Shown here: positions 8,507 through 56,552 of the stretch, in pieces | How positions within the stretch are numbered: the first letter of the stretch is position 1 | Layout: each line of letters begins with the position of its first letter | Virus record (IMG/VR): IMGVR_UViG_3300036940_000176 | Coordinates: 1-62,668 of that record | DNA: 62,668 nucleotides | Direction: 5' to 3' (one strand) | Source of the DNA: a virus | Made by a program: the position numbers and the translations under genes | Notes under the pieces: model-generated | What the model was told of the DNA's origin: nothing | Database searches by the model: none | What the model saw: only the letters and a program-made list of their open reading frames with translations

Positions 8507-8535
8507 ATTATATAATATTTGTCACTTAATGTCAA
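8507..8535 (-). promoter_or_regulatory. Consensus sigma-A type promoter of the tail operon
   Basis: Minus strand reads TTGACA (8535-8530), a 17-nt spacer, then TATAAT (8512-8507). CACGTTAC motif at 8496-8489 just downstream. Confidence 0.75.
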
Positions 8536-8570: not shown

Positions 8571-8642
8571 TCTAGGAAATTAGAACAAAAAACAGAACGT
8601 GTGCACGCACATTTTTATTATACACTAAAAAAAATATAAAAC

Positions 8643-8688
8643 AAATAAAAAAGCCAAACCAACGGCTACGGGTTCGTTGATTTGGCTT
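8643..8688 (-). terminator. Strong intrinsic terminator ending the ncRNA unit
   Basis: 14-bp stem AAGCCAAAUCAACG/CGUUGGUUUGGCUU. It has one U-G wobble on the minus strand that would be an A-C mismatch on the plus strand. Followed by TTTTATTTG. Confidence 0.8.
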
Positions 8689-9063
8689 AGTGTGTTTCGC
8701 TTGTTTCATTCCCAAGAATGAGTGACAAGCCTTTATATATATTTTACATCAGAGTGTGAACTGCAAGTTTTCCATCTTGCAACATTTAATCACTATAACT
8801 GATGGGTTTAACAGTAAGAGGGCTGTCTCCAACCCTCTAAGGAAGGGGATGTGTGAATAAAAATTATTCACCATGCTATGTTTGTACTCGTTCTCCACAA
8901 GTACAGACGTAAGGGATAAGTTGCGACAATGTCGCTGGCACTGAATGAGTAGTTTATAGATACAGTACTTGTCGAGAGTTCGTATCACTCATTCAGCATC
9001 AGCGACACCCACTAATTAAAGTGGAATGTCTTTAACTATAGAAAGGAAGTGACACTCAATCAC
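8689..9063 (-). ncRNA. Candidate large structured ncRNA (about 420 nt including the terminator), class unknown
   Basis: Own promoter and terminator, with no SD-preceded ORF. Local GC is well above the flanks. Nested helices include CTGAATGAGT(8941-8950)/ACTCATTCAG(8986-8995), GTCGCTG(8931-8937)/CAGCGAC(9000-9006), AGAGGG/CCCTCT(8817-8838) and GTGAATAA/TTATTCAC(8853-8871). Confidence 0.6.
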
Positions 9064-9069
9064 AGTTAT

Positions 9070-9098
9070 ATTATATGACATTTATATAACTTTTGCAA
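9070..9098 (-). promoter_or_regulatory. Near-consensus promoter of the ncRNA unit
   Basis: Minus strand reads TTGCAA (9098-9093), a 17-nt spacer, then TATAAT (9075-9070). Starts 6 nt after the groEL stop. Confidence 0.65.
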
Positions 9099-21239: not shown

Positions 21240-21575
21240 TCATAATAACCCACTTTCTTTAATTTTATCCAATTGCTCTTGAGTTAGTTCAATAGTTACT
21301 TTCTTTTTAAGTCTATTTTCAATAATTACTCCTTTACTATTTTCCCAATAAATCATATTACCTTGCTCATCATATTCTCGTTTTTCCCAATAACCATTGC
21401 TATTTTCCCCATAAATCAAATTACCTTTTTCATCATATTCAATTTTAGACCAATCTCCATCACTATTTTCATAATAAACCCTATTACCCTTTTCATCAAA
21501 AACTTTAAACCAATCATCTTTAATAACCAACTTATAACTACCTTTTAATTCTATTTGACCTTTGAATAATTTCAT
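21240..21575 (-). CDS. YD(Rhs-type)-repeat-like small protein, paralog 3 (111 aa)
   Basis: 21-aa repeats YxENSxGxWxKxEYDxxGNxI. N-terminus MKLFKGQIELKG is shared with the neighbours. Confidence 0.6.
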   Translation of the reverse strand: MKLFKGQIELKGSYKLVIKDDWFKVFDEKGNRVYYENSDGDWSKIEYDEKGNLIYGENSNGYWEKREYDEQGNMIYWENSKGVIIENRLKKKVTIELTQEQLDKIKESGLL

Positions 21576-22246
21576 AATAACCCACTTTCTTTAGTCTGGT
21601 GCGGTCTTTTATCAACAAATACTCCATCATTATTTTCCCAATAAACCTCATTCCCTTTTTTATCATATTCTCTTTTAATCCAATAACCATTACTATTTTC
21701 CCAATAAACCTCATTCCCTTTTTTATCATATTCTCTTTTAATCCAATAACCATTACTATTTTTCCAATAAACCTCATTCCCTTTTTTATCATATTCTCTT
21801 TTAATCCAATAACCATTACTATTTTCCCAATAAACCTCATTCCCTTTTTTATCATATTCTCTTTTACTCCAACATCCTTTGCTATTTTCATAATAAATCA
21901 TATTGCCTTTTTCATCATATTTATACTTATGCCAATCTCCATCACTATTTTCCCAATAAATCACATTACCTTTTTCATCATATTCTTTTTTAGACCAATA
22001 ACCATTACTATTTTTATAATAAATCATATTGCCTTTTTCATCATATTTATACTTATGCCAATCTCCATCACTATTTTCCCGATAAATCACATTACCTTTT
22101 TCATCATATTCAATTGTAGACCAATCTCCATCACTATTTTCATAATAAACCCTATTACCCTTTTCATCAAAAACTTTAAACCAATCATCTTCAACATCTA
22201 ACTTATAATTACCTTTTAATTCAATTTTACCTTTAAATAATTTCAT
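21572..22246 (-). CDS. YD(Rhs-type)-repeat-like protein, expanded paralog 2 (224 aa, about 9 repeats)
   Basis: Same repeat. Includes near-perfect 63-nt tandem copies. Confidence 0.6.
   Translation of the reverse strand: MKLFKGKIELKGNYKLDVEDDWFKVFDEKGNRVYYENSDGDWSTIEYDEKGNVIYRENSDGDWHKYKYDEKGNMIYYKNSNGYWSKKEYDEKGNVIYWENSDGDWHKYKYDEKGNMIYYENSKGCWSKREYDKKGNEVYWENSNGYWIKREYDKKGNEVYWKNSNGYWIKREYDKKGNEVYWENSNGYWIKREYDKKGNEVYWENNDGVFVDKRPHQTKESGLL
21600..22200. repeat. 63-nt (21-aa) tandem repeat array inside the 224-aa YD-like gene
   Basis: Units start at 21637, 21700, 21763 and 21826 and are almost identical. More diverged copies extend to about 22200. Confidence 0.85.
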
Positions 22247-22247
22247 T

Positions 22248-22583
22248 CTATTTAACCACCTTTATTTGATAACCTAATAGTTTCTCAATTTCAGCAATGG
22301 TTAATTCTTTGGCATTCGGTCTTTTGTCAATAATTACTCCATCACTATTTTCATAGTAAACCTCATTCTCTTGCTCATCATATTCTCTTTTATTCCAATA
22401 ACCATCACTATTTACCCAATAAATCCTATTACCTTGCTCATCAAATTTTCGTTTTTCCCAATAACCATTGCTATTTTCCCCATAAATCAAATTACCTTTT
22501 TCATCTAAAACTTCAAACCAATAATCTTTAATAACCAACTTATAACTACCTCTTAATTCAATTTTACCTTTAAACATTTTCAT
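22248..22583 (-). CDS. YD(Rhs-type)-repeat-like small protein, paralog 1 (111 aa)
   Basis: Same N-terminus and repeats. Confidence 0.6.
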   Translation of the reverse strand: MKMFKGKIELRGSYKLVIKDYWFEVLDEKGNLIYGENSNGYWEKRKFDEQGNRIYWVNSDGYWNKREYDEQENEVYYENSDGVIIDKRPNAKELTIAEIEKLLGYQIKVVK

Positions 22584-22940: not shown

Positions 22941-23106
22941 AAACACCCTCCTTATACTCGTTATCAAACACCTTATCAACTGTTATAGTATCTTCATAAT
23001 TATCCCAAGCATCACCAGTGTAAAGTTCAAATGCTTCTTCTTCGCTTTCGGCTTCTACGTCTTCATACCATACTGCTTCAATTTTTAATCTATAAATTTT
23101 ACCCAT
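22933..23106 (-). CDS. Acidic mini-protein (57 aa). Not in the ORF track.
   Basis: ATG 23106 overlaps the upstream stop (TGATG). SD GGAGGAAT. Confidence 0.45.
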   Translation of the reverse strand: MGKIYRLKIEAVWYEDVEAESEEEAFELYTGDAWDNYEDTITVDKVFDNEYKEGVYE

Positions 23107-23861
23107 CACTTTATTCCTCCTTTTCTAAAATTAATTCCTTTTATCTCATACTTATCATAAATTTCATTACCATCTATTCTACTAATCGTTGGTGCCACTT
23201 GCTTTGCTGTGTCAATTTTTTCAGACCTTGAATATCTATTTAGCAATTCGTTTGGAACACTATAATTACTTGTAATAATCGTCATTTTTTCATTTTCTAA
23301 ACGGTAATCAATAATTGGAAAAAGTATTCCTGACATTGAAAAATTAGTGATATTTTCATTGCCCAAATCATCAATAACTAGCACATCAATATTTTCTAAG
23401 TGTTTAACAAATGACTTTTCATTTTCATAATCAATTGCTCCAAAATAATCATTTAAAATCGTATTCATTTTGCCATAATATACCCTTGCACCTCTTTTAA
23501 AATATTTTTTAGCAAGGTATTTTGCAACGTGACTTTTTCCCACACCAACTCTCCCCCACAAATACAAAGACCTTTTATTTTTAACACTATTCATAATCTC
23601 GTTGATTTGTTTCACTTCAGTGGTGTCAAATTTCTCTTTTAAGACATTTTCATCGTTTATGCTACCAATTATTTTATCACACCTCAAAAAAGCAATGCGA
23701 TATGTTTTAAACGTTTTATCTTGAATGATTGTTGGATAATGTCCTTTGTGAACTTGTTTACAATTTTTAAGACCAGGACAATTTTTGCATAATTCAATCC
23801 CATTGTCATAAATAAGTTTATCGATTTTTGCAAGTTCTTCATAACCTTTTGGTTTATTCAT
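23106..23861 (-). CDS. DnaC/IstB-like AAA+ helicase loader
   Basis: Walker A GRVGVGKS, Walker B VLVIDDLG, and an N-terminal Cys-rich segment. Confidence 0.75.
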   Translation of the reverse strand: MNKPKGYEELAKIDKLIYDNGIELCKNCPGLKNCKQVHKGHYPTIIQDKTFKTYRIAFLRCDKIIGSINDENVLKEKFDTTEVKQINEIMNSVKNKRSLYLWGRVGVGKSHVAKYLAKKYFKRGARVYYGKMNTILNDYFGAIDYENEKSFVKHLENIDVLVIDDLGNENITNFSMSGILFPIIDYRLENEKMTIITSNYSVPNELLNRYSRSEKIDTAKQVAPTISRIDGNEIYDKYEIKGINFRKGGIK

Positions 23862-25906: not shown

Positions 25907-26689
25907 TTAAAATTCATCTATACTAACGTCGCTTTTTCCACTTTGCATTTTTTCATACCCATCACCATTTACTCTATTCTCAAAACTACCATTAAATAAT
26001 GTCGATGGTCTTAGATATGTTAAATCTCCGCCTTGTAACATTCTAAATGAATATGCGTTATCAATACATTTGAAAAAGTCATCTTTTCTAAAACCTTCAT
26101 TCCATCGTGCTCTGATTAATTTTCTTGTACTTTTAGTTGTATGTCTATAAGATTTCTTTGTTTTTAAATTCAAGTAATCGATAATTTCTTTGTAAGGTAT
26201 CGTTTCTTTCTCGTCTTTTTCTTCATTTTCCTCGACAAAAGTATTTATCTTTTTCTTACTCTTACTCTTACTCTTACTCTTATCGGACATTGTCTTTTTT
26301 TGTCCTTCGGATGTCTCAATTGCTTTTTGCTTTTCACGATAAATTCTTTTCTTTTTAGCCCAATCAGTTTCACTACCAATCATATTATTTACCTCATTTA
26401 AATAAATTGTACCATCATCTAAAATCTCCATCATATTTAATTCAGTAAACAATTTAATAGCGCTTCTTACAATATCAATATTTGTGTTTGTGATACTTGA
26501 TAACATTTTATCATTGTAAGGCACTGTATCACTAAACCTTAAATGTCCCTCGTGTGAAAGACTTTCAACTAACAGTTTTAAATAAAATAAAACATAATCT
26601 TTACCGTTATCCATATCTTCAATAACTTTAACGTCGTGTCTCTTGAAAAAATCTTTATGTAATTTTAACCAAAAATATTTCTTAACCAT
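25907..26689 (-). CDS. Phage replisome organizer / DnaD-like replication initiation protein
   Basis: N-terminal FWLKLHKDFFKRHDVKVIE...YVLFYLKLL block and C-terminal DnaD-like IPYKEIIDYLN...IRARWNEGF block. KSKSKSKSKK linker encoded by a (CTTACT)n microsatellite at about 26253-26283. Confidence 0.7.
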   Translation of the reverse strand: MVKKYFWLKLHKDFFKRHDVKVIEDMDNGKDYVLFYLKLLVESLSHEGHLRFSDTVPYNDKMLSSITNTNIDIVRSAIKLFTELNMMEILDDGTIYLNEVNNMIGSETDWAKKKRIYREKQKAIETSEGQKKTMSDKSKSKSKSKKKINTFVEENEEKDEKETIPYKEIIDYLNLKTKKSYRHTTKSTRKLIRARWNEGFRKDDFFKCIDNAYSFRMLQGGDLTYLRPSTLFNGSFENRVNGDGYEKMQSGKSDVSIDEF

Positions 26690-30250: not shown

Positions 30251-31735
30251 TTAATATTTTGTTAGATATTCAGCAAAATCTTCTTTTGGAGTTTCGCTAA
30301 ATTTAAGACGATTTTTACAAACACACAAATAATTATTAAAATGTTTTGTTTTTTTAGTAATGTAATGAATTTCGCCACATTTTTCACAAACCGCTTTGTA
30401 TTTACTGACAACTGGATTAGCACTTTTGTGCGTTGCTTTCCCATCGCTTCCCAATTGTCTTGCAAGTCTACGCCACTCTTTTCCGTGTGGTTTGATTTCT
30501 CTATTCCGTGTTTTCTTTCCCAATAAAGCGTGTGCTACTTCGTGTGCTAATGTATCCAACATTTTTTCAACTGGATTGTATGCTAAAAATACAAGGCTTA
30601 TAGATATAATTTTTTTTACATAATATGCACGGCCATAACTTGATTTTGATTTATCAAACACTAAATCGTACTCTTTCAACTTCTTCGGATACATTTTTTT
30701 GTACTCTTCCCACTTGTTTTTAATGATTTCTTGTTCCAAAAGCCATTGTTTTTCACTTTTATGTTTAGTATCAGTTGTTTTCACGGTTGTATTTTCAGTT
30801 TGAGTGCCCTTAATTTCTTCTCTCTTGATTTTTTCTTCTTTTTTGGTATCAGACTTAGCCATAGAGTTTAAAATCAATTCTACGGCTTTTTCAGCCTTTG
30901 TAAATGCACTGACTAATTTTTGTGCACTCTCTTCTTCAAAGTACTTAATCCAAGAGTTAATGTATGCTTGTGAGTTATCAAAGTTTATATTATCGACACC
31001 TAGAAAAGCACTTGCTAGCATTGTTGCGCCACTTTCAGCGATTAATTCTTCATATGAATAAATTCTTGAACCAAAGGATGCCCCTTTAAGTCTATTTAAT
31101 CGTGATGTGTGCCCAGTGCTGTGGATGATTTCGTGTGCTTTGGTTTTTAAAAATACAACGTTGTTTTTAAAAGCACCTTGCTGTGGCAACGTGATGCTGT
31201 CACTCATTGGACTGTAAAACGCTCTATTTCCACCAAAGTTAAGTGTAATATTATATTTATTTAAGTAATTATTCATAATATTTTCAAGGTCTTTTTCTTT
31301 TTGATTTAACTCTTCAACAGTCAATGGTTCTTTTGGTTTATTAAACTTTGGTTCTAGGTCAGTGTCTTCGATGTGGAACACACGATAATATCTCAATAAA
31401 AATGATGTTCTTTCTTTTTCTTCTTCTTCACCATTCTCATTGATTTCAGTCGTTGTATATTTTCCGATTTTCCAATAAACAACAACTTCACTTTTAGACC
31501 CTTTTTTCAATTTTGCTTTTAATTTTTTGATTTGATTGAATGTTACGTATTCACCAGGAGCCAAAAGCATTTGATTTAAACCGTTATAATATTTTCCAGT
31601 AACATAACTAACGGCACCGACATTACTGTTCACATCAGTATCGATTAACCATTCTCTTTTCCAAACTAAATGCCCTTTGCTTAATTGGTTTAAAAGTCTT
31701 TCTTTCACAATTTCAAATACGTTTGTTTTACTCAT
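30251..31735 (-). CDS. ardC: ArdC-like antirestriction fusion: ssDNA-binding N-domain plus zincin metallopeptidase plus a second SprT-like Zn-protease/zinc ribbon (494 aa)
   Basis: N-domain TGKYYNGLNQMLL...YVTFNQIKKL...VVVYWK. First HExxH KAHEIIHSTGHTSRLNR. Second HExxH LAHEVAHALL...HGKEWRRLARQLG. C-terminal CxxC...CxC ribbon. ATG 31735 is 8 nt after GGAAAGAGAG. Confidence 0.7.
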   Translation of the reverse strand: MSKTNVFEIVKERLLNQLSKGHLVWKREWLIDTDVNSNVGAVSYVTGKYYNGLNQMLLAPGEYVTFNQIKKLKAKLKKGSKSEVVVYWKIGKYTTTEINENGEEEEKERTSFLLRYYRVFHIEDTDLEPKFNKPKEPLTVEELNQKEKDLENIMNNYLNKYNITLNFGGNRAFYSPMSDSITLPQQGAFKNNVVFLKTKAHEIIHSTGHTSRLNRLKGASFGSRIYSYEELIAESGATMLASAFLGVDNINFDNSQAYINSWIKYFEEESAQKLVSAFTKAEKAVELILNSMAKSDTKKEEKIKREEIKGTQTENTTVKTTDTKHKSEKQWLLEQEIIKNKWEEYKKMYPKKLKEYDLVFDKSKSSYGRAYYVKKIISISLVFLAYNPVEKMLDTLAHEVAHALLGKKTRNREIKPHGKEWRRLARQLGSDGKATHKSANPVVSKYKAVCEKCGEIHYITKKTKHFNNYLCVCKNRLKFSETPKEDFAEYLTKY

Positions 31736-31776
31736 AATTTTCACTCTCTTTCCGTTTTTCAGTCTTATAACGTGAC
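31726..31776 (-). promoter_or_regulatory. Copy A of a conserved 51-nt leader/start element
   Basis: 47 of 51 nt identical to 34819-34869. Spans GTCACGT..AAGAC..AAAAACGGAAAGAGAGTGAAAATTATGAGTAAAA. Confidence 0.6.
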
Positions 31777-31789
31777 TTTTAATAGTATT

Positions 31790-34477: not shown

Positions 34478-34828
34478 CTACTCTTCGGATTTTTTCAAAA
34501 TAACAAGGTGACTTTCTTTATTTAAGCGCTCTAGCCACTCATTTAAACCGTCTTTATTTTCCCAGTAAGCGATAACTTGTTCACGATAAATATCGTTTGA
34601 CCCAGTGTAGACCTTGAATTGACCTTGATATTCTCTTAAGTGACCAACACAAGCCCACGATTGTCTCAAAGCGTGCGCTTTAATCGGTAAAACGTACCCA
34701 TTTTTAAATGTTACTCTTGCATTCAAGTCATATCCAACGCCTATAGTAACGCCATAAACCTTAACAATTGAACAGTCTACAGTCTCAACATTTTCTAAAA
34801 TCTTTTCTCTCAATTCTTTTTTACTCAT
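34478..34828 (-). CDS. Hypothetical protein, first ORF of the early-left operon (116 aa)
   Basis: Track ORF trimmed to ATG 34828 (MSKKEL), 8 nt after GGAAAGAGAG. Confidence 0.55.
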   Translation of the reverse strand: MSKKELREKILENVETVDCSIVKVYGVTIGVGYDLNARVTFKNGYVLPIKAHALRQSWACVGHLREYQGQFKVYTGSNDIYREQVIAYWENKDGLNEWLERLNKESHLVILKKSEE

Positions 34829-34869
34829 AATTTTCACTCTCTTTCCGTTTTTAGGTCTTTTTACGTGAC
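34819..34869 (-). promoter_or_regulatory. Copy B of the conserved 51-nt leader/start element
   Basis: See copy A (31726-31776). Confidence 0.6.
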
Positions 34870-34902
34870 CATAGTTTAGTTTTTTTTGAGTGCTTATTCA
34901 CT

Positions 34903-35394
34903 CTATAAAACGCACTTCAAAGAGTGCGCTCTAACAATGAATAAACGGCTTTTGATTGAAGCCTAAAATCTTGCCTACATTTCAGTAGCGAAGCAAGTCG
35001 CTTTTTAGGGTCAAAATTGCATCGTTTTCATCGCATCCCATCGCATTGTTCACGCTTGAACCGACCCAATAAACGTTGATATAAATGAGATTTTTAACCT
35101 TTCTATATTTTTGGTCAAATATACCTTGTTTAAAGTTATCAGTAAACGCCCTAACTACTAACGATTAAGACCCTTAACCACCTATTGAGCGGTAGCGAAC
35201 CGCTGTTCAGTGACCTATGCTTATTTGATACATAGTAACTTGATTGTGCTTTGGTTCAAGTTTGAAGACCAGTACATCAGATGTATTTAGATGCTATTCA
35301 ATTGTCAAATACCGCGTAGCCTCTTTTTGTCCTATTAGACCATAAGACTAGGCGACTACCGACCCAAGAACCGATTTGCGGTTGATTTGCTTGC
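34903..35394 (-). ncRNA. Candidate long structured leader or ncRNA (about 490 nt), GC-enriched and ORF-free
   Basis: Many short GC-rich hairpins: AGCGG/CCGCT 35189-35205, AGCGA/TCGCT 34987-35003, GGCTT/AAGCC 34946-34963, AACCG/CGGTT 35370-35384, CTATG/CATAG 35214-35235. The 10-mer TTGGGTCGGT occurs twice. Ends at a CGCACT/AGTGCG hairpin plus TTTTA (34903-34929). The only ORF (35298-35549) has no SD. Confidence 0.45.
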
Positions 35395-35400
35395 AACCCT

Positions 35401-35429
35401 ATAGTCTCACACTTTCTAACGATTGTCAA
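35401..35429 (-). promoter_or_regulatory. Candidate early-left promoter
   Basis: Minus strand reads TTGACA (35429-35424), a 17-nt spacer, then TGaGACTAT. The -35 is consensus and the -10 is weak but of the extended type. Confidence 0.35.
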
Positions 35430-35790
35430 ATGTTTTTTCAAATTTCTTTTTTTGGTGCGTTTGTTTGTTTCTTTGCTTATAAGATATTTTAAAGGCTGTT
35501 GACCAGTTAAAATGAATTGGTCAAATATAGGTTGGTTGGTTTGGTTCATTTGCGGATAAAATTATGGTGAATAATCCACATAAAATGGATGCAAAAACAA
35601 GTCGATTTTAGGCGCTTGCTTATTGATGGATTTTAGGCGCTGTTTAAATGGTTTATGGGTATATGGTAGAAAGACCCACCCCCCTATCGTAAAAACTGAA
35701 ATATAACGGATAAATAGGCGGTCAAGTGGGTACTTCGCTTCTCGTATATATTATTATTAGCACTCCCCCTATTTTTTAAAAATATCCAAC

Positions 35791-35819
35791 TTGACAAAGT
35801 GACACTTATGACATATAAT
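35791..35819 (+). promoter_or_regulatory. Consensus early-right promoter
   Basis: TTGACA (35791-35796), a 17-nt spacer, then TATAAT (35814-35819). Confidence 0.75.
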
Positions 35820-35891
35820 ATAACTATAAGCCCCCCTAACATAAGAGAAAGGAGAGAGATTAAATGAGTATATGGATAAGGAGGAATTATA

Positions 35892-36053
35892 ATGAAAAAA
35901 GTATGGTTAGCAATATGTTTATTATTTGTAATAGTGTTTATATTGGCTTATGCCGATTATAAAGATGACAAAATGCAAGAATGCGTAATGGAAAATATGG
36001 GTATATTAGATTATGAGGGCGCATTAGATTACTGCAAAAATAGTCGAGATTAG
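35892..36053 (+). CDS. Small signal-anchored/secreted protein (53 aa), paralog A. Not in the ORF track.
   Basis: SD AGGAGGAA. N-terminal TM followed by YADYKDDKMQEC...C. Confidence 0.55.
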   Translation: MKKVWLAICLLFVIVFILAYADYKDDKMQECVMENMGILDYEGALDYCKNSRD

Positions 36054-39285: not shown

Positions 39286-39534
39286 ATGAAACCTAAAAAT
39301 ACATTGCTAAAAATTGCTAGACGCAAAAGTGGAATGAAACAACAAACATTTGCTAAAAAAATTAATGTAAGTAATCGTACTTTAATAAGATATGAACAAT
39401 ATGATACAATACCACATCCACAAAAAATGAAAAATATATGTGAAATTTTAGATTTGGATATAAATGAGTTAATCGAAGACATCGAAAAATACAAAGGTGG
39501 TTTACATGCGAAAAAAAACAAAAACAATAATTGA
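39286..39534 (+). CDS. XRE/Cro-C1-type HTH transcriptional regulator (82 aa)
   Basis: LLKIARRKSGMKQQTFAKKINVSNRTLIRYEQ matches the HTH_3 signature. Confidence 0.7.
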   Translation: MKPKNTLLKIARRKSGMKQQTFAKKINVSNRTLIRYEQYDTIPHPQKMKNICEILDLDINELIEDIEKYKGGLHAKKNKNNN

Positions 39535-39799: not shown

Positions 39800-39828
39800 T
39801 TGACAAAGTTATATAATAGTTATATAAT
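39800..39828 (+). promoter_or_regulatory. Consensus promoter of the sRNA unit
   Basis: TTGACA (39800-39805), a 17-nt spacer, then TATAAT (39823-39828). Confidence 0.7.
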
Positions 39829-39834
39829 TAAGTT

Positions 39835-39910
39835 AGGTTGATAGCCGTGTTTCATGTACCTCTCTTTCCTTTGTTATAAGTACACCTAATCAAATAGGTG
39901 TACTTTTTTT
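39835..39910 (+). ncRNA. Candidate sRNA of about 75 nt (or terminated leader) with an exposed CU-rich box
   Basis: Consensus promoter, then no SD or ORF, then a 9-bp hairpin AGTACACCT/AGGTGTACT (39879-39904) followed by T7. The box ACCTCTCTTTCC lies at 39858-39869. Confidence 0.55.
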
Positions 39911-39911
39911 A

Positions 39912-39940
39912 TTGTAATTTAAATAATATGATGATATAAT
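39912..39940 (+). promoter_or_regulatory. Promoter of the RHH/structural-arm transcript
   Basis: TTGTAA (39912-39917), a 17-nt spacer, then TATAAT (39935-39940). Confidence 0.6.
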
Positions 39941-40684: not shown

Positions 40685-43600
40685 ATGGATTATGATATTG
40701 GTAGAATGTATGAAAATTATTTAAAAATGGCCAGAGAAAAATATCCATCATTAAATTACAAAACCAATATTTTTCAAAATTCAGATAAAATATCTGAATA
40801 TTATGGAACAAGACAACAAGTAACAAATCAGTTTTCAGAACAGTTAAAATTATCAGAAGAAGAAATGGCAAATCTTGAACAGACATCTGTTGAGGATTAT
40901 TTGGGTAACCAAAATGCTATTTCTTTTTTAACAAATAATATTCAATATTTTAAAAATGTGGATACTCAAAGTTCTTATTATAAAGATATTGATAGAAGTG
41001 TTAATGTTTTACAAAATCTAAATGTTGATGATAAAAAAGAGTATTTTAATAACAAGTTGTCAAATTTACAAAAACAATCTTTATCTTTGTTGGGCGTTAA
41101 GGATGAAGATGATTTTAGCAACACATTAGAGATGTTAAAAGTTGGTAGCACTGCTGAAACTGGTGTTATGACAGAGACACTAACTGATGCAGATGGTAAT
41201 ACCAAAGAGGTTGATGTTACTTTATCTGAAATTTTAAAAGGTGCTGGAGCAGGCGCTTTGGCTGGAGCAGGCGTTGGGACTTTATTTGGTGGTCCATTAA
41301 TCGGAACATCAATAGGTGCATTAGTTGGTGGTATTACAGAGGTTGCTGATTTATTAAGTGAAAACGACATTGTTGAAAGTGTTAATAACGCAAGGAGAAA
41401 TTTTGTATCAGCAATGTATGGTTCTACAATAGGTATGATTGGGAATGCTTCTGGTGGTATTGGAAATGCCATAAATACACTTTTGACAAATGTAAGTGAT
41501 AAAGAGGTTGAAGAATTACAAACATATAATCCTTTGAGTGTTATTGAAGGTGTAACAGATGGGATTGATACATTTTTAATTAATCAACAAAAAGATGAAT
41601 ACTCTAATTTTTCTAAGTTTTTAATTCAAGATTTACCAAGTGTAATGGGTTCTCTTGCTGGTTTTGCTGTTTTAGGTAAAGGACTTGGTAAAGTTGCAGG
41701 AACTAAATCAGTAACAATTAATAATAAACCTTTAAACTTTTTCTTTGGCGGAGAAGTCAGTGAATTAGCATTAAGAGGAACGGTTGCTCTTGGCGCAATG
41801 GATGAAACCTTTGATAACCTTAGAGCAAGAGGAATTTCAAATGAAAAAGCATTTACCAGTTCTCTTTTAACTGGTGGTTTAAACTGGGGTGTTCTTGCCT
41901 TTACTGAAGCGGGAATTGGTAAACGTGTCGAAAGAAGTTTAAGTGATAAATTTGGAAAGTTTGCAGTCAAAGATATTCTTAAAAACATACCTGTTGAAAT
42001 GGCTAAAGAAGGAGCGGAAGAGATTGGAGAATTAATGTCTCAAGAACTTGGTCAATCTTTAGGACTTGGTAAAGCAGAATTTTCATCATTAAAAGATTAT
42101 ATATATACTGGTTTCTTAGGTGCAGTTGGTGGAGTATTTGGTGCTGGTGTTGGATATGTAAATCACAGAAGTGCTATCGAAAAATCATATAGTGAACTTG
42201 AAAAAATAAATGGTTCAATTGGAGATAAATCCTTAATAAAAACTGTAAAAGATAATATTGAGAGAGAATATAAAACAAGAGATGAAACAATATCTGAATT
42301 AGAATTAAAAGATAAAGCAATTGCAGAGATGCAGAAAAAAGGCGTAAATGGAATACCTGATATTATTCTAAAACATGTCCTTTTAGATATGAGTGAACGT
42401 TTTAAAATTTCATTAGAAGATACAACAAAATATTACAAAGAGACACTAGAACCACAAGCAATTGATTTTCTTCAGAAACAAACGGATTTAGATGCAACTA
42501 AAGAAAATATTTCTAAAGTATCTTTCCTTTTAAATGAAATCAATACAAATCCTAGTAAAGAAGTACAAAAAGAATTAGATGAAAATTTAGATTTATATTC
42601 TAAATTAGAAAATACAGACCATTATAATCAAATTGCATCTTTGAGTAAAAAACAAAAAATAGAACTTAAAAAATTATCATCTACACAACTTAATAAGCGT
42701 GTTTATGAAATGGTTGAAAAAGGTGCTAATGACTTTTATGTAGAATTAGATGAAAATGTCAAATCTAAAAAAGGCAAATCTCTTGATTTATTAAGAAAAT
42801 GGAATATGTCTAAAGAAGACATTGATACAATGTATTCTAATCAATTAATTGACCAAGACACTTACAATAATTTTAACAATAAGTATAATAAAGAAATGGC
42901 TTCAATTAAACATATATTCGATAAATTTATGTCTAATCCAAGTATTGAAAATCAAAAAAATGTTTCTGAAAAATTTGCAAACAAACAAGAATTGTTTAAT
43001 TTTATCGAAGAAAATTATTCTGGAAATGTAGACGAATATATTAGGTTGTTAGATGATTTTAATTTAACAAATTATGATAAATCGTACAAAAAAATTGTTA
43101 GCATTGGAAAAGATGTTGGCGGTGTTTTGAGTTATAATATTGATGGCAAAAGTCAACAATCAAACGCTGAACAATTACAAAAAATTAAAACATTAAAATC
43201 AGAATTGAAATCAGAATATGGCCGTTTAAATAAAGTTCCTTTTGAACTAATAAACAAATTAAATGATAATGATATTTCATTGGAAAAATTAAATGAACTT
43301 GAAAAAGAATTATCTCAATCTTTAAAAGAACAAAAGAAAGAAACTAAAAAGAAAATAGAAACCAAACCTTTAAAACTTATTAAGAAAAAAGGTGTTTTGT
43401 CGTACCAAAGTTTAAACGAATATTATAAAGATAATATAAGCGAATTAGACAGGGTTAATGATAAATTAAGACATTCGTATTTGCAAAATATAGCAAGTGA
43501 AGTAGGCTCTTTTAAATCATTACCTTCAAAAATTAAAGAAAAATACAATATTAAAGATTTTAATGATATTGTATTTCAAAATGTTTTAGATGAATATAAA

Positions 43601-46447
43601 ATTAAAGAGAATAGAAAAAAAATATTCCCTGAAACGAAAGTCGTTGATAGTGACGGAAATCCATTAACCGTTTATCATGGAACTGTTAAAGATTTTGATG
43701 TATTTAAAAAAACAAAATTAGGAAGTAGAACAGATGCTTCTGATGCGGAATTAGGATTTCATTTTAGCAACAATAAACATGTAATGAAATTTTTTGGAGA
43801 ACATTATAAAAAATATATTTTAGATATTAAAAAACCAGTTGATTTTTCTTTTAACACAGTAATTACAAAAGAAAGTATTGAATATGAAGAAATGATGTTT
43901 AGTGATTTAAATGAAATATTTAAAGAAGAATTTAATGGATTTGATGAATACGATTACGATGTCATCAATATTTTAAGTCGTGAAAATGCTAGTGTTCTTA
44001 AAAACATAATCACAAAAAATCCAAACATTTTAGAAAAATTAAAGAAAAAAGGTTATGACGGATTTATTTTCGAACTACAAATGATAGACCAAGCATATAT
44101 AAGTAACTTATCTTTTAATAGTGATGGAAAAGAATATATTGTTCTTTATAACGACCAAATACATCAAGTCTTAGAAACTAAAGGTGAAAATCAAGAACCT
44201 TATACAGTTAATAGAAAAAATCAAAAACTTGAAGATAGTGTCAATATGGATTTATTTTATGTCAATAAATTATTAATGACAGATAATATTAATTTAGCAA
44301 CAACAGATGAATTTGAGTTTAAAAAATTAATAAGGTTAGCAAAAAGCATTGCTGAAGAAGGTATAACTGAACCGATTATTTTAGGTTATGATAATTCAGA
44401 AGGAAGAGTTGGGATTATAGATGGTCAAAAAAGATTGCAAATTGCAAACATTCTTGGTTTGAAAGATATACCAATTAGAGTTATTGTAAATCCTATGAAC
44501 CAAGATTTAAACGGTTCACTTACTACTGAAAAAAGAATATTTGAAGACCCTGAATTAAACAAAATTTTAGACAGAGAAAAAGAAATTAAACGTGTATTAG
44601 ATACGCTTGTTTTGTCTGGATATAATGGTGATAAATTTGCATATGAATTAGTAGATGAACTTCAAGTTCCAATTGTTAGAAAAGAAAGATACAAAGAGAT
44701 TTCAGATGCTATTAAAGAATTTAGAGTTACAAAACCTAAAGGATACAAAACAAAAGAAGAAATTAAATTAACAAAAGAAATGTCAAAAAATATTTTCAAA
44801 AACACTGTAGAATTTGGCGGTTCTACACATGGTATGAAATATGTTTCAGATTTTAAATCAAGCGGATATGCAATAGCAACAGAGGGAAATGAAGTTAAAA
44901 TAAAAAGTTCAGATTTTAAATCAAATGATATTTTAGATTATGTTTATTCACATGAAAATATATTAAAATCAAATGATAATTATAATATTGGAACATGGCA
45001 AAATCAAGAAGATGGTTATACATATTTAGATATATCGGAAGTATATCCTTCTGATATGAACATTGCAGAAGTATTAAAAATTGCCAAAGAAAGAAAACAA
45101 TTAGCGGTGTTTAATTTAGAAACATTTGAAGAAATTAGAGTAGAAAAAGATGAAATTTATTCTGATGGTCAAATTGAACAAACTAAAGAAAATGGAACTA
45201 AAATTGGTGACACATCTGAATTTAAACCTAATTATACAGTAGGTAGAAGCAATCCTAAAATAAAAGAATATACAAATGTTTCTGTTGATATTTTAAGTCA
45301 AATTCAAGACGTTGATAGAATTGGTCAATATGGTGCCTATAATAGTGATATAGGAATAAATGAAACTATTGAACTTGCTAAAGATATTGCTGAAAACGGA
45401 TTTAAAAGTTTTGTTTATATTGAATATAATCCTGAAACAGGTAATATTGTTTTAGGAGAAGGAAATCACAGATTACAAATCGCTCAAATATTAGGATTAA
45501 AAGATATTCCTGCAAGAGTTGGAATAGGCACAGGCAAAAATGCAAATTTTGAAACTCTAAATATAGGCAAAAATTTAGTTGAAGGTGGATATGGAAGATT
45601 TTGGGATAATGGCCCTGAATTTGAAACTATAATTAAAGCATTGGCAAAATCAGAGGAAAGAACTGAACCAATGACTTTTACAAAATCTAGTCTTAAGAAA
45701 ATTAGAAACAATAAATTAAATACCCAAATAAATAACGCTATTTCAGATTTGAAAAAAGAAGTCATAAAACAATACGAAGAAGAAAAGGATTATTTGGTAG
45801 AGTTAGAAAATGATTATAGTGAAAAAGAAGTAAATGATGATGACATTGTTGAATATATGATTTATGATGATTTGGGATTAGAAACAAAAGATTATGACTT
45901 AGAAAAAATCGATAATGTTAGAGAAAATATAAAAGATTTAGAAGAAAAACTTAATATGTTGGAAGAATATGAAGGAAATCCATTATTTTATTATAAAACA
46001 GAAGAAAATTTTATTGATGATTTAATTGAAATTCAAAATAAATATGGTTTTTACGAAAAAGATTGGATTTTAAATTTAGACAGTATTGTTGAAAAAATTA
46101 ATAGCGATTATGAAATTGATTATCAACGTTTTTCAAAAAACGAAGGTAAAAAAACTGAAATCATTGAAGCAATTCAAGAATTTAAAATTGATAAAAGTAC
46201 ATCTGAAGAAGTTTCTATTCAAAGAGATATGGTGGATGTTAAAAATGCAATTAATGGTTTAGATGTAATTGGTGTTGGAATTGATTATATTAACGGAGTA
46301 AGACAAAAACCTATTGTTTATTACGAAGGTGACACTATTTCTGAACACACATTTTATTATGACAAAAATCAAATCGCAAAAGAAATTTATAAAAGAAACT
46401 TTATTGGAGAAACTATCGATGAAGAAGGTAATGAGGTAATTTGTTAG
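40685..46447 (+). CDS. Giant polyvalent virion/ejection protein (1,920 aa): Gly-zipper TM segments, an ART-PolyVal-like domain and two ParB/Srx-like domains
   Basis: GAGAGALAGAGVGTLFGGPLIGTSIGALVGG (about 41230-41340). DGNPLTVYHGTVKDFDVF...LGFHFS (about 43640-43790). ITEPIILGY..GRVGIIDGQKRLQIANILGLKDIPIRV (about 44360-44480). FVYIEYNPETGNIVLGEGNHRLQIAQILGLKDIPARV (about 45400-45520). Confidence 0.65.
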   Translation: MDYDIGRMYENYLKMAREKYPSLNYKTNIFQNSDKISEYYGTRQQVTNQFSEQLKLSEEEMANLEQTSVEDYLGNQNAISFLTNNIQYFKNVDTQSSYYKDIDRSVNVLQNLNVDDKKEYFNNKLSNLQKQSLSLLGVKDEDDFSNTLEMLKVGSTAETGVMTETLTDADGNTKEVDVTLSEILKGAGAGALAGAGVGTLFGGPLIGTSIGALVGGITEVADLLSENDIVESVNNARRNFVSAMYGSTIGMIGNASGGIGNAINTLLTNVSDKEVEELQTYNPLSVIEGVTDGIDTFLINQQKDEYSNFSKFLIQDLPSVMGSLAGFAVLGKGLGKVAGTKSVTINNKPLNFFFGGEVSELALRGTVALGAMDETFDNLRARGISNEKAFTSSLLTGGLNWGVLAFTEAGIGKRVERSLSDKFGKFAVKDILKNIPVEMAKEGAEEIGELMSQELGQSLGLGKAEFSSLKDYIYTGFLGAVGGVFGAGVGYVNHRSAIEKSYSELEKINGSIGDKSLIKTVKDNIEREYKTRDETISELELKDKAIAEMQKKGVNGIPDIILKHVLLDMSERFKISLEDTTKYYKETLEPQAIDFLQKQTDLDATKENISKVSFLLNEINTNPSKEVQKELDENLDLYSKLENTDHYNQIASLSKKQKIELKKLSSTQLNKRVYEMVEKGANDFYVELDENVKSKKGKSLDLLRKWNMSKEDIDTMYSNQLIDQDTYNNFNNKYNKEMASIKHIFDKFMSNPSIENQKNVSEKFANKQELFNFIEENYSGNVDEYIRLLDDFNLTNYDKSYKKIVSIGKDVGGVLSYNIDGKSQQSNAEQLQKIKTLKSELKSEYGRLNKVPFELINKLNDNDISLEKLNELEKELSQSLKEQKKETKKKIETKPLKLIKKKGVLSYQSLNEYYKDNISELDRVNDKLRHSYLQNIASEVGSFKSLPSKIKEKYNIKDFNDIVFQNVLDEYKIKENRKKIFPETKVVDSDGNPLTVYHGTVKDFDVFKKTKLGSRTDASDAELGFHFSNNKHVMKFFGEHYKKYILDIKKPVDFSFNTVITKESIEYEEMMFSDLNEIFKEEFNGFDEYDYDVINILSRENASVLKNIITKNPNILEKLKKKGYDGFIFELQMIDQAYISNLSFNSDGKEYIVLYNDQIHQVLETKGENQEPYTVNRKNQKLEDSVNMDLFYVNKLLMTDNINLATTDEFEFKKLIRLAKSIAEEGITEPIILGYDNSEGRVGIIDGQKRLQIANILGLKDIPIRVIVNPMNQDLNGSLTTEKRIFEDPELNKILDREKEIKRVLDTLVLSGYNGDKFAYELVDELQVPIVRKERYKEISDAIKEFRVTKPKGYKTKEEIKLTKEMSKNIFKNTVEFGGSTHGMKYVSDFKSSGYAIATEGNEVKIKSSDFKSNDILDYVYSHENILKSNDNYNIGTWQNQEDGYTYLDISEVYPSDMNIAEVLKIAKERKQLAVFNLETFEEIRVEKDEIYSDGQIEQTKENGTKIGDTSEFKPNYTVGRSNPKIKEYTNVSVDILSQIQDVDRIGQYGAYNSDIGINETIELAKDIAENGFKSFVYIEYNPETGNIVLGEGNHRLQIAQILGLKDIPARVGIGTGKNANFETLNIGKNLVEGGYGRFWDNGPEFETIIKALAKSEERTEPMTFTKSSLKKIRNNKLNTQINNAISDLKKEVIKQYEEEKDYLVELENDYSEKEVNDDDIVEYMIYDDLGLETKDYDLEKIDNVRENIKDLEEKLNMLEEYEGNPLFYYKTEENFIDDLIEIQNKYGFYEKDWILNLDSIVEKINSDYEIDYQRFSKNEGKKTEIIEAIQEFKIDKSTSEEVSIQRDMVDVKNAINGLDVIGVGIDYINGVRQKPIVYYEGDTISEHTFYYDKNQIAKEIYKRNFIGETIDEEGNEVIC

Positions 46448-46934: not shown

Positions 46935-49900
46935 TACATGTAGTGGCAAAAAAATGGTTGAACACATAGAAAAAACTACTCCTGATGTAAAAGTAACTAC
47001 TGGTGAAAGACTTGTTAAAAGAATAGATGATGCTATTAATAATAGTGGTAAGGCTATTCAAAAACTTATTAATAAAATTTCTCCAAAAACAAAAAAGGAA
47101 TATAAAAGTCAATTATCAACACAAAATGAAGTTACAAAAGGTTTAGAAAAGATAATTGAAAAAAGACAAGACACAACAGGTGAGGTTGAACAAAAAGGTA
47201 TTGTTAGGAGCATTGTTGACAGTATTAAAAACATGTTTAGAGCATTTAAAGATGTAGACAATTATGAAATACAACAAGCCTTAATTACACAACAACAAAG
47301 TGGTGCTATGGCTGAAGATGCTATCCAAAAGCAATTAACATATATGCTAAAAGATGCTTCTGTTGATGAACTTAGACATTTACAAAAAATTATATTAACT
47401 GGCAGTATGGTTGACAATCATTTAGAAGATATGAGAGTTCCTATGCAAGATAGTATTATTGATGAAATTAAAAATAATCCAAATCTTGATTATGAACAAG
47501 TGCTAGAAGAAATTAAAAATAGTCCTGAAATAAAAGAGTTTGTAAATGGTAAAAAGGAAACAATTAAAAGGCTTAAGAAACAAAATAGTAAAAATAACGA
47601 AATTTTTAAAGAGTTAGAAAAAGAAAAAAAATATTATAATAAGCGTAAACAAGAAGTTAAAGAAAAATTGAAAAATGAAACGGACGAAAAAATAATTACT
47701 AATTTGAAACAAGAAATTTCTTATATTGAAAATCAAGTAAAAACAATTGCCAACAAGCAAAGTGTTCATAATGAAAATACAAAAATGAATAATTCTGAAA
47801 TTAAAAAAATAACAAACAATCTTGAAAGCGATAAATACATGAAAAAAATGTATGAAAATCAAATTCATTTAAACTCCGTTATTGAAATAAGAGAAGAATA
47901 TTTTGGCAAAGATTATGTTAAAAGAGAAATGATGCAAGATGAAACTTTATCACTTAAAGATGTTGACCCAAACTCTATACTTGGTCAAAATGAAAAATTA
48001 TTAAATGTTTTTAAAGCAAGAAAAAAAATGTATAATGATGTTAAAAATGAGTTTGTAAATAGAGCCAAAGAAGTTTTGAGCCCTAAACAAACAAGACAAA
48101 TAATGGATAGTTTGCAACGTTTTGACCGCTATTATAAAAACATTGTTAGAGATGTAGAAATTTCTGTTGCTAATTTTAAAAATGGTAAATCGTTAGCGGA
48201 TTTTGCAACAAGCCTTAATAATAAAAATGTTGGTCAATTTATTCAACGTATGGGAACTAATAAAGATATTGACAATAACTTTTTATATGTTGACCAGATT
48301 GCTTTAGGACAACTTTATCAACAACGTATTCAATTAGATATGATTGAAACATTACAAAAGTATGATTTAAACAAGCAAGTTTTAAAAGATTATCAAAATG
48401 CTATACAAAATGAATTAAATGGTTTTGTTCAAAGACTTGAAAATGACGAAATGACTAAGCAAGATAAAAAAGTATTTGATAAACTTAAAAAAATTACCAA
48501 AAAAGTAAGAATTTTATTAGAAAACAATTTTAATGTTGATAGACAACTCATCCAAATTTTAGAAGATATGGAAAGTGATGAATTTGTTGGTGAAGTAAAT
48601 GGCGAACAAATGAATGTTTTTGATAGATTTGATTATGTTTTCAAAGAAGCAACTCAATATATTGATGACAAATTTAAAAGTGAAGTTGATAATAATGTAA
48701 TGACAAATTTTTATAATACACATCCAGAGTTTAAAAACGTGATTGAATATTTAATTGGCCAAAACATTGAAACACCAAATTTGGCGGAATATAAACATTT
48801 TTTACAAGTGTTTGCATCTACAAATTTCAAAGGTAGTTCAACAGCAAATGAATTGTTAAGTATTTTAAATCAAAGAAACCAATATAAAAAATCTATTGAA
48901 CAAACAATGGATAGTCAATACAAAGATTTTTTACCAAAAGATTATTTAAAAACTCACATGATTACAACTTCTAATGGTAATCCTTTATCTTACTATGTTG
49001 GTAATAAAAAAATTAATCAAATTAGATTAACTGGTTTAGTAGATATTCAATATGATAACCCTGAAGTACTTTCAACGGAAGTTATGAACCAATTATTAGT
49101 TGCTATGGATGATACATATTTAGATGTACTATTACAAAATCAAGAAGTAATGATTATTCCAAAAAATATTGGTAACGGTTTAATTGAGAGTATGACACCA
49201 CCTAGAGATTTAGGTATAGCAACAAGATTGTTTAATAAATGGTTGCGTCCATTAATGATTTTATCACCTGAACGCATTTTAAAGTTTAATTTAAATACCG
49301 CTTTTATGAGTGATGTTTATAGAATGGCACAAACAAATCCTATGGCATTAAGAAACGTTAAAGAAAGTATTAAAATTATTGGTGAATATTACAAAACTGG
49401 TAAAGTGGTCAATAAATTTGACCCAAAAGATAGTACTTACGATAACAAAGAAAAAATATTTTATGAGTTTAGAAAATTATTTGGTGGTCAATTTGATAGA
49501 GAAATGCAAGTTATTAATCAAAAAATATCGAATAATCAATGGGATAAACTTGAAAAAGAAATAGAAGAAATAAGTAATAGTAAGCGTAGTGAAACAAATA
49601 AAGCAAAACGAATGCTTAAAAAATATCTTGATATCGTTGGTACAGCAACAAATTTTAGAGAAATGATTTTACGACTGTCTTATGGTTTAGAAACGGCAAG
49701 AGAAATTGATAGTGGAAAAGAAATTCATTATGGTGCTTCTAAAAAAGGACAATTAAAACAATTGTTAGATAATGGAGAAAACTTTAAATTTGTTAGTGGT
49801 GTCGCAAATCAAAACTTTATTGCTTATAAAGAAGCAGGTAGAATGGCAAAATTTGTAAACCGTTCATTTATGCCTTTCTTCTTATTCCCAGAAGGTAATG

Positions 49901-55787: not shown

Positions 55788-56552
55788 ATGAATTATTTCG
55801 ATTTATTAAACACCGTTTATTACTCGCCTGGTGATGATGCTGGTACAACTGGTGATGCTGATACTGGTCAAGGTGGAGACGTTGGAGCAGATGAACAAGA
55901 AACTGTAACCCAAAGTTTCAAAATAGGCAACCTCGAAGTTGACCCAACAACAAAAGAAGGTCAACAAAAAATTCTTGAAGCGTATGGAAATCTTCAAAAA
56001 GCACATACAAAATCAACTCAAGAATTGAGTAAAATTAAAAAAACTCAACCGAAAAAAACTGAAACAGACAACAAGAGTAACACTGACAAAATTGATGAAA
56101 GATTTAATTACATCTATGAAAAGCAAATTAATCAAGATTTAAAAGAAATGAAATCTAATGCTATTGAAGATTTTAAATCTCAATACCCAGAAGATATTGT
56201 TAAAAAAGCAGAAGGAATTTTGAAAAAAGATTTAGATAGTTTGGATAAATTAGATGTAACAAAAAAAGAACATTTAATCAAAAGCCAAAACCTTTCTTTC
56301 TTATTCAATAAGGCTATTGCTGAAAGTATGAAGAAATCTAATAATACAAAAAATGACCCTAAAAAAGATATTAATAATTTTAAACCCCAAGAAGACCTTC
56401 CACCTAATCCAGGAAAAAGTGACGGAAACAACATTCCTGGAGAAGAAAATCCTGCTGATTTATACAAAAATGATGACAGTTTTAAAAGGGCTGGAGAAAT
56501 GGCTAAGAAAGCAAGACGACTTCGTTCAGGAGAAGGTGTAAGAAACCAATAA
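55788..56552 (+). CDS. Scaffolding protein candidate (254 aa)
   Basis: Acidic N-terminus, helical/charged body and basic C-terminus. Directly upstream of the capsid gene. Confidence 0.55.
   Translation: MNYFDLLNTVYYSPGDDAGTTGDADTGQGGDVGADEQETVTQSFKIGNLEVDPTTKEGQQKILEAYGNLQKAHTKSTQELSKIKKTQPKKTETDNKSNTDKIDERFNYIYEKQINQDLKEMKSNAIEDFKSQYPEDIVKKAEGILKKDLDSLDKLDVTKKEHLIKSQNLSFLFNKAIAESMKKSNNTKNDPKKDINNFKPQEDLPPNPGKSDGNNIPGEENPADLYKNDDSFKRAGEMAKKARRLRSGEGVRNQ

Follow-up and report, generated by a model that had tools for sequence, protein, structure and literature searches.

Phages lambda (the N/nut system) and HK022 (put) have a promoter, an untranslated leader and a terminator-like hairpin before their early genes, and in T7 tandem early promoters are found in a ~430-nt untranslated region that precedes an anti-restriction gene. 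In the Ceduovirus c2, the replication origin lies in a 611-bp region between the divergent early and late modules, as a non-coding stretch flanked by the promoters PE1 and PE2 (PMC7150918; NC_001706 annotation). No open reading frame (ORF) or ribosome-binding site (RBS) follows PE1, the transcript of which has been implicated in transcription-mediated initiation, and three types of Ceduovirus origin without mutual similarity all support plasmid replication (PMC7150918). Long GC-rich intergenic regions of AT-rich genomes are, in turn, enriched in templates of structured RNAs (PMC11109978). Here we compare with these systems a hairpin-dense block at positions 34903-35429 of a phage known from the metagenomic contig IMGVR_UViG_3300036940_000176, whose full 62,668 bp constitute the window of this study. 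Our results show that the block is non-coding, and that it is probably transcribed leftward as an untranslated RNA. We tentatively propose that it forms the untranslated body of a leftward transcription unit, in which a leader terminator would gate the early-left genes.

A non-coding, GC-enriched and hairpin-dense block

The block lies in the gap (34838-35891) that separates the leftward genes (3261-34837) from the rightward ones, which run from 35892 onward across the contig junction to 3250. This gap measures 1,054 nt, and not the ~900 nt that the original prediction had placed between the divergent early operons. The description of 34903-35429 as a GC-enriched, hairpin-dense and non-coding block did stand. 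Its GC content is 38.9%, compared with 28.6% genome-wide and 28.4% in coding sequence, and the excess of hairpins was confirmed by counting perfect stems of at least 5 bp with at least 3 G-C pairs and a loop of 3-10 nt per 527-nt window. The block scores 8 such hairpins (6 distinct ones, two being counted in two registers) for a genome mean of 0.46 per window. This count is reached by 0.3% of the genome windows, all of them located here or at 8.3-9.0 kb, and by none of 300 mononucleotide shuffles. Both in GC content and in hairpin density the block ranks second in the genome.

No ORF with an RBS was found in the block on either strand, and none of the start codons of the gap is preceded by a Shine-Dalgarno (SD) duplex of the strength seen in real genes (-7 to -13 kcal/mol). 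Nor does a hidden long frame open under code 4 or code 15, where TGA or TAG is read as sense. Translation of the 83-aa ORF 35298-35549, which had been named as a finding that would count against the prediction, is not supported. The SD duplex of this ORF is +2.4 kcal/mol, the ORF spans the candidate promoter described below, and a search of 1.84 billion representative proteins yielded no homologue, the matches being itself and a repetitive 819-aa protein (E 2e-6). As a separate observation, the strongest SD in the gap (-13.5 kcal/mol) belongs to a 32-aa ORF on the plus strand (35864-35962), which runs into the beginning of the first rightward gene (53 aa) and could represent a small gene missed by annotation, or a leader peptide.

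A candidate promoter and a terminator-like hairpin bracket the block

The elements at both ends of the block, all on the minus strand and in the direction of the putative transcript, are the following.

35431-35455, minus strand: A-rich tract (CCAAAAAAAGAAATTTGAAAAAACA), UP-element-like, directly upstream of the -35 box; a likeness of little weight in an AT-rich genome
35401-35429, minus strand: candidate sigma-70/sigma-A promoter TTGACA-17-TGaGACTAT (weight-matrix score 11.1, rank 22 genome-wide)
34903-34933, minus strand: terminator-like hairpin UAGAGCGCACU-CUUUGA-AGUGCGUUUUA (stem 34933-34906), with a core 6-bp G+C-rich stem, then UUUUAUAG
34888-34903, minus strand: hairpin GAGUG-AAUAAG-CACUC, then A8 (local fold)
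34819-34869, minus strand: 51-nt leader and start cassette with a small hairpin, SD GGAAAGAGAG at 34846-34837 and ATG at 34828; it lies outside the block and marks its 3′ boundary

All parts originally assigned to the leftward promoter were found: TTGACA at 35429-35424, a 17-nt spacer, TG at 35409-35408 and GACTAT at 35406-35401. No other minus-strand site of the 1,054-nt gap scores as high in our weight-matrix scan. Its -35 is perfect, its spacing is ideal and a TG extends its -10, which retains the A at position 2 and the T at position 6; a stricter scan missed it because the -10 matches at 3/6 positions. Scanning for extended -10 sites told us nothing in a genome so rich in AT. Perfect consensus promoters (TTGACA-17-TATAAT) number five in the genome, one of which is rightward in the gap (35791-35819), and the gap holds no perfect leftward one. 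GC skew changes sign at ~35400-35500. Transcription would start at about G35394 or A35392, and the analysis favours a minus-strand RNA of ~490 nt, running from ~35394 to ~34903, with modest thermodynamic support.

At the other end, the hairpin that had been predicted from CGCACT/AGTGCG and TTTTA is present, as CGCACU/AGUGCG and UUUUAU. When read on the minus strand its stem lengthens to 11 pairs, including three G-U pairs that make it specific to this strand. It has a folding energy of -17.9 kcal/mol (z -4.6), with the U-tract UUUUAU following or overlapping the stem. A 120-nt window around it (34860-34979) has a z of -5.0 on the minus strand versus -1.7 on the plus strand. In the interval between this hairpin and the first gene, the sole promoter-like site is GTGAAT-17-TAAACT at 34901-34873 (score 6.9, rank ~506).

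The 51-nt leader of the first gene (34869-34819), described earlier as conserved, indeed has a second copy at 31776-31726 with 92% identity. Here too, at 31.8 kb and before the ArdC-like gene, a strong hairpin (31827-31798) is followed by ~35 A/T-rich nt and by the same leader with its small hairpin and SD GGAAAGAGAG. A third terminator-like hairpin (34446-34429) comes after the first early-left gene. The leftward early region is, on these predictions, divided by terminator-like hairpins. Between the two leader copies, the small hairpins (34854-34870 and 31761-31777, minus strand) show a compensatory change (GGUC/GACC versus AGUC/GACU), with conservation of the start of the loop (ACGU) and of the downstream SD.

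Folding and internal elements of the block

Compared with shuffled sequences, the fold of the 501-nt block has a z of -2.5 on the minus strand and of -2.9 on the plus strand. In 200-nt windows over 35000-35349, z ranges from -2.1 to -2.4 on the minus strand and from +0.7 to -1.6 on the plus strand, the genome background for windows of this size being a mean z of -0.38 with a standard deviation of 1.24. Folding prefers the minus strand, modestly. Furthermore, two internal helices (35355-35312 and 35176-35143) need G-U pairs, four and five respectively, and for this reason form on the minus strand only. Dense as it is in hairpins, the block as a whole surpasses shuffled sequences only modestly in its folding.

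The elements found inside the block are listed in the direction of the putative transcript. They include the six stems named in the original prediction, all of which are present at positions within one base.

35369-35383, minus strand: 5′-proximal hairpin AACCG-CAAAU-CGGUU (fold and hairpin count); named stem AACCG/CGGTT
35358-35367, minus strand: 10-mer UUGGGUCGGU, copy 1; similarity extends over 35373-35358
35312-35355, minus strand only: 15-bp interrupted stem-loop with four G-U pairs (minimum free energy (MFE) and centroid structures, whole-block and local folds)
35301-35310, minus strand: ATTTGACAAT, identical to the -35 region of the candidate promoter, with a weak -10 (TACATC) downstream
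35240-35261: named stem CTTGA/TCAAG
35215-35235, minus strand: hairpin CUAUGU-N9-GCAUAG (fold); named stem CTATG/CATAG
35178-35213, minus strand: stem-loop with tip AGCGG-UUCGCUA-CCGCU (35204-35188), T-arm-like, but with a C at the A58 position; named stem AGCGG(T)/(A)CCGCT at 35188-35204
35143-35176, minus strand only: 12-bp stem-loop with five G-U pairs (z -2.9 in a 106-nt local fold)
35111-35120, minus strand: ATTTGACCAA, a repeat of 35526-35517 that may be an internal promoter (TTGACC-17-AAAAAT) or a site bound by protein
35060-35069, minus strand: 10-mer UUGGGUCGGU, copy 2, exact repeat
35020-35045, minus strand: three (U)GCGAUG/CGAUG units, ~10 nt apart, below the threshold of Tandem Repeats Finder
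34987-35002, minus strand: hairpin AGCGA-CUUGCU-UCGCU (fold and hairpin count); named stem AGCGA/TCGCT
34947-34970, minus strand: GAUUUUAGGC (34970-34961) overlapping the hairpin GGCUU-CAAUCAA-AAGCC, then GUUUAUU; named stem GGCTT/AAGCC at 34947-34963

The repeated 10-mer had been reported as a pair. TTGGGTCGGT occurs exactly twice in the genome, at 35069-35060 and 35367-35358 of the minus strand, so that the pair stands and only its second coordinate was one base off. The match extends to 14/16 bases. We estimate that ~0.3 such pairs are expected by chance, and one pair in 527 nt is hence not significant alone. A search for base-pairing targets of the 10-mer gave top matches within the range expected for the best of ~25,000 windows. 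Its complement, as an immunity RNA of the P4 CI/P1 c4 type would have it, is absent from the minus-strand transcript within the intergenic region; near-matches were found only at 6913-6904 and ~31378-31350. GAUUUUAGGC has its other two genome copies at 35604 and 35629, on the plus strand.

The T-arm-like hairpin gives a sub-threshold match to the cyano_tmRNA family (8.6 bits, E 5.8) and has no partner acceptor stem. A 20-mer taken from it has three chance matches in GTDB genomes, in high-GC bacteria. ARAGORN found no tRNA or tmRNA at default settings, and spurious calls only at thresholds of 60-80%. Other candidates were discarded: a miniature inverted-repeat transposable element, for a self-blast finds no other genome copy of the block; hairpin promoters of the N4 type, the loops being of 5-9 nt and not of 3 nt; and an ssoA-like origin of rolling-circle replication, no plasmid similarity having been found. 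This last candidate concerns the hairpin loop TAGCGA (plus strand), which presumably resembles CS-6.

A leader whose terminator may gate the early-left genes

The reading that we favour, and that we regard as possible rather than probable, takes the block as the body of a leader. Host RNA polymerase would start at the promoter 35429-35401, near 35394, and transcribe ~490 nt of moderately structured RNA without an RBS. It would then meet the terminator-like hairpin 34933-34906, ~35 nt short of the 51-nt cassette of leader and RBS. The early-left genes would be reached mainly by read-through from the promoter of the block, because there is no convincing promoter between hairpin and gene (unless the weak sites are real). 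The block would act in cis, its terminator limiting or timing the entry of polymerase into the operon that contains the ArdC-like anti-restriction gene. An active promoter, a working terminator and a regulated read-through are what we infer here from the sequence.

This succession of elements is the one described above for lambda and HK022. On the other hand, no nut- or put-like element, antiterminator pairing or identifiable antiterminator protein was found here, and this leader is much longer than those of the lambda and HK022 antitermination systems. The block also resembles the non-coding RNAs (ncRNAs) obtained in screens of GC-rich intergenic regions, in that it is part of the longest and most GC-rich intergenic region of this phage, in an AT-rich genome. 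It differs from them in that it has no family or covariation and only a modest fold, and would rank there as 'unnamed' or 'low-ranking candidate'.

The original prediction had considered a regulatory leader of the attenuator type, a separate ncRNA or part of an origin. What holds is that the block is non-coding, is bracketed by promoter-like and terminator-like sites and has a folding bias towards the minus strand, whereas the marks of an attenuator and a match in Rfam are absent. Indeed, the folds contain no upstream segment complementary to UAGAGCGCACU, whose sole alternative partner (AGAGUG, 34902-34897) lies downstream of the U-tract. As for a sensing element, there is no SD-led small ORF and no match to an aptamer family, and the block does not resemble a classical attenuator or riboswitch. 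In view of these missing marks, regulation, if any, would be protein-mediated, or the terminator would simply be leaky.

Several observations weigh against a gated leader. The -10 of the candidate promoter matches at 3/6 positions, while the phage has five perfect 12/12 promoters elsewhere. The U-tract (UUUUAUAG) is short and the consensus terminator scan did not list the closing hairpin, probably because the G-U extension of the stem consumes the U-tract. The whole-block z on the minus strand is no better than that on the plus strand. Folds, SD scan and Rfam searches revealed no antiterminator pairing, no leader peptide and no aptamer-like match. Moreover, none of the collections searched holds a homologous intergenic region, and hence there is no support from conservation or covariation. 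Finally, the first early-left gene (116 aa) has four homologues of ~54% identity, on short contigs, and the regions upstream of all four are unrelated to the block: they contain, for instance, AT-rich duplicated promoters (contig L003) or a 24-nt repeat array (contig L005).

The searches behind these statements covered families and genomes alike. The Rfam scan that had been recommended, applied to the whole window, found no family at the Rfam 15 gathering thresholds, and scans relaxed to E 10 brought up nothing but noise. The best sub-threshold matches, both far below threshold, were DUF805 with 17.1 bits (in the adjacent leader) and, inside the block, snoZ165 with 16.4 bits. Using blastn, we found no similarity of the block to plasmid records and no nucleotide match to 34800-35900 in 50,697 phage records. 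Among the matches listed for the pattern of two 10-mers in IMG/VR and the JGI metagenomes, there were chance matches only, with nothing shared beyond the pattern itself. Six further contigs of the phage, recovered from five samples, show 100% identity wherever they overlap the region, and since every other copy found is identical, no covariation analysis is possible.

A possible transcription-dependent origin of the c2 type

The main and strongest rival explanation is that the block is an origin like that of c2, in which a non-coding early transcript, or the making of it, would be needed in cis to start replication. We consider this unlikely, although the layout speaks for it: as in c2, the block is non-coding, lies between divergent modules, starts at the first early promoter, has no ORF or RBS and precedes the leader of the first early gene. 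We also measured the PE1-PE2 stretch of c2, and obtained a GC content of 40.5% (33% in the intergenic region and 36% locally) and a folding z of -0.2, which is not striking either. A functional non-coding early transcript can thus look like the block, for the c2 stretch is GC-enriched without a folding signal. Furthermore, cumulative GC skew in this phage traces a V that bottoms out at 34-36 kb and peaks at ~3-4 kb, the convergence point on the opposite side, and no iteron or repeat cluster was found near the replisome-organizer gene. The adjacent 35430-35650 has an AT-rich stretch, a 26-bp palindrome, two near-consensus DnaA boxes and two 13-bp direct repeats.

Other data argue against an origin. 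GC skew is confounded with gene orientation, and sites resembling DnaA boxes are barely enriched genome-wide (33 found for 24 expected), none of them being perfect. The counterpart of PE2 would be the weak GTGAAT-17-TAAACT site (34901-34873) described above. With its ~490 nt the block is longer than the c2 stretch (~330 nt) and has no sequence similarity to it; indeed, blastn of 34800-35900 against phage records showed no similarity to any phage origin, including those of the c2, bIL67 and 923 types. As Ceduovirus origin types share no sequence, missing homology is no argument against an origin of this kind. Ceduovirus origins replicate plasmids without phage proteins, whereas this phage carries its own DnaD-like organizer (25907-26689, at 26 kb) and DnaC-like loader (23106-23861), and the origin function considered here is a sequence-based candidate. 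The origins of organizer/loader modules are usually located in or beside the organizer gene.

As for an origin of the iteron type, which has at least three repeats of ~17-22 bp by an AT-rich stretch, the block holds two-copy repeats of 10-24 nt, and the three GCGAUG units are only 5-7 nt long each. Beside the AT-rich stretch, at 35551-35580, two inverted matches (8/9) to the DnaA box, TTATCCGCA and TAATCCACA, are found 12 nt apart. A distinct observation concerns contig L005, from another uncultured phage, where positions 1-510 hold the 24-nt AAATTTAAAAGAAGAAGTTTAAAAT three times in direct and once in inverted orientation, with TAACCAC-rich spacers in between. This array looks like iterons in the equivalent position.

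Possible DNA-level control

The block could instead be a control region acting at the level of DNA, through binding sites or tandem weak promoters, with incidental hairpins and an RNA without a role. This too seems improbable to us for the block itself, while clustered motifs do set the entire gap apart as a control region. Four copies of ATTTGAC share one strand (minus) over a span of 413 nt (35526, 35431, 35310 and 35120), for 19 occurrences in the genome and ~0.13 expected per span; a usable -10, however, accompanies only 2/4 of these sites. The gap also contains every exact genome copy of GATTTTAGGC, three in number, one of them in the block and inverted. The structure TTGACC-N14-GGTCAA is present three times in the genome for 0.02 expected, with one copy 70 nt upstream of the leftward promoter. 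The only three CCCCCTA of the genome (35680-35686, 35765-35771 and 35832-35838) fall within 160 nt and flank the rightward promoter 35791-35819; on the basis of this arrangement they may be operators. A possible regulator would be the XRE-type helix-turn-helix protein encoded at 39286-39534.

The likeness to the T7 early region (A1-A3, gene 0.3) goes in the same direction: both have several same-strand -35-like boxes, an untranslated region of ~400-500 nt and an anti-restriction operon. Unlike the situation in T7, an acceptable -10 follows two of the four boxes here, and the closing hairpin is an 11-bp terminator-like structure and not an RNase III site. Binding sites would, moreover, leave unexplained both a 10-point GC enrichment over 500 nt and the helices that G-U pairs restrict to the minus strand, and the most striking repeats are found outside the block, at 35430-35890.

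The palindromes TTGACC-N14-GGTCAA are located at 35499-35524, 47963-47988 and 55939-55964 with identical spacing, and judging from their sequence they are probably bound by a dimeric protein. GATTTTAGGCGCT forms a direct repeat 25 nt apart (35604-35641), with an inverted 10-nt copy ~640 bp away (34961-34970), at the far end of the block.

A possible free-standing RNA gene, or possibly decayed DNA

We also weighed the possibility that the block is a gene of its own, for a large trans-acting ncRNA of ~490 nt whose function (host takeover or anti-defence, for example) would be unrelated to the operon. Its favourable points are the promoter and the terminator-like hairpin that bracket the block, the helices restricted to the minus strand by G-U pairs, the GC enrichment that is a classical mark of structured RNA in AT-rich genomes, and the existence of other such units in this phage, one clear (8.7-9.1 kb) and one probable (75 nt, at 39.8 kb). 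Against them stand a z of -2.5, compared with -7.7 for the 8.7-9.1 kb RNA, the absence of GNRA or UNCG tetraloops among the hairpin loops of the folds, the lack of an Rfam match or of a homologue in the collections searched, and the lack of a good promoter downstream to serve the operon. On balance, such a gene is quite unlikely. A broader version, in which the block would be a previously unseen structured RNA of ~490 nt from a deep-branching uncultured podophage lineage with two or three ncRNA genes (8.7-9.1, 34.9-35.4 and 39.8 kb), and would have an early role either in trans or in replication priming, we hold to be unlikely as well.

The two other units are worth describing in their own right. 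At 8640-9098 (minus strand), a promoter TTGCAA-17-TATAAT (9098-9070) is followed by an RNA of ~400 nt and a 14-bp terminator (~8700-8655), and a perfect promoter at 8535 serves the operon that comes after. This RNA (9060-8640, minus strand) has an MFE of -133.6 kcal/mol and a z of -7.7, and no match above noise in Rfam. From its sequence the region looks like a free-standing ncRNA gene, and as an RNA candidate it far surpasses the block. At 39800-39912 (plus strand), a perfect promoter (39800-39828) is separated by ~50 nt from a terminator (39878-39905, 11 bp and U7), for a predicted RNA of ~75 nt. Three early-left genes share the unusual SD GGAAAGAGAG (34846-34837, 32465-32456 and 31753-31744), and a single-stranded segment of this RNA, CUCUCUUUCC, is its exact complement. 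CUCUCUUUCC also pairs with other purine-rich RBS regions, and its specificity for GGAAAGAGAG is unproven.

Decayed or acquired DNA without present function, such as the relic of a gene or of a tRNA cluster from a higher-GC source, would account for the missing homologues, the lack of a detectable function, the above-mean GC and the one T-arm-like hairpin, but is very unlikely in view of a hairpin density far above that of composition-matched shuffles, of the absence of a long open frame under any code and of the little spare DNA in a genome with ~90% of its sequence in ORFs of at least 40 aa. A decayed tRNA in particular was rejected, with only spurious calls from ARAGORN and no tRNA match in the E-value scans with Rfam.

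Genome and relatives of the phage

The contig is a whole metagenomic contig whose ends (1-123 and 62546-62668) repeat ~123 nt, and from this overlap the genome of 62.5 kb is complete, being circular or terminally redundant. It encodes a tailed-phage gene set with an SU10-type portal and adaptor, a chaperonin and a 1,920-aa polyvalent protein, as well as replication and recombination functions (DnaD-like replisome organizer, DnaC-like loader, RecT and SSB). The portal has 21% identity to its nearest match among deposited phages, and for two proteins encoded near the block IMG/VR contains no close relative. Among 5.8 billion proteins, neither the ArdC-like protein nor a 243-aa protein, both neighbours of the block, has a close relative: the former has no match above 45% identity, and the latter matches only itself. 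By sequence, the phage is an orphan with no known near relatives, in a lineage without cultured ones. The SDs and promoters are of Firmicutes type, and the host would be a low-GC one. A confident model (pLDDT 82) of the 116-aa product of the first early-left gene matched no PDB fold at E <0.1, and thus offers no hint as to what the operon does.

Other features of the genome were noted. The chaperonin, at 9104-10813, is of the Cpn60 family. The polyvalent protein (40685-46447) carries ART and ParB_N domains, and a 494-aa protein (30251-31744) fuses ArdC-N, metalloprotease and SprT-like domains. A 66-nt (22-aa) tandem repeat of 7.3 copies at 62170-62652 reaches the contig junction and is probably part of an ORF with leucine-rich repeats that spans this junction. 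Another tandem repeat, with a period of 63 nt, lies inside a coding region at ~21300-22250 (minus-strand ORF 21572-22246).

Discussion

The architecture of the block has clear precedents; its structural signal is weak, and an orphan phage allows no generalisation. If the block is transcribed and functional, this phage spends ~0.8% of a tightly packed genome on an untranslated early RNA. Should our proposal or its main rival be true, this RNA would be a gate on an anti-restriction operon or a replication primer like that of c2. Together with the 8.7-9.1 kb RNA and the putative 75-nt RNA, the block suggests a phage that uses RNA unusually heavily.

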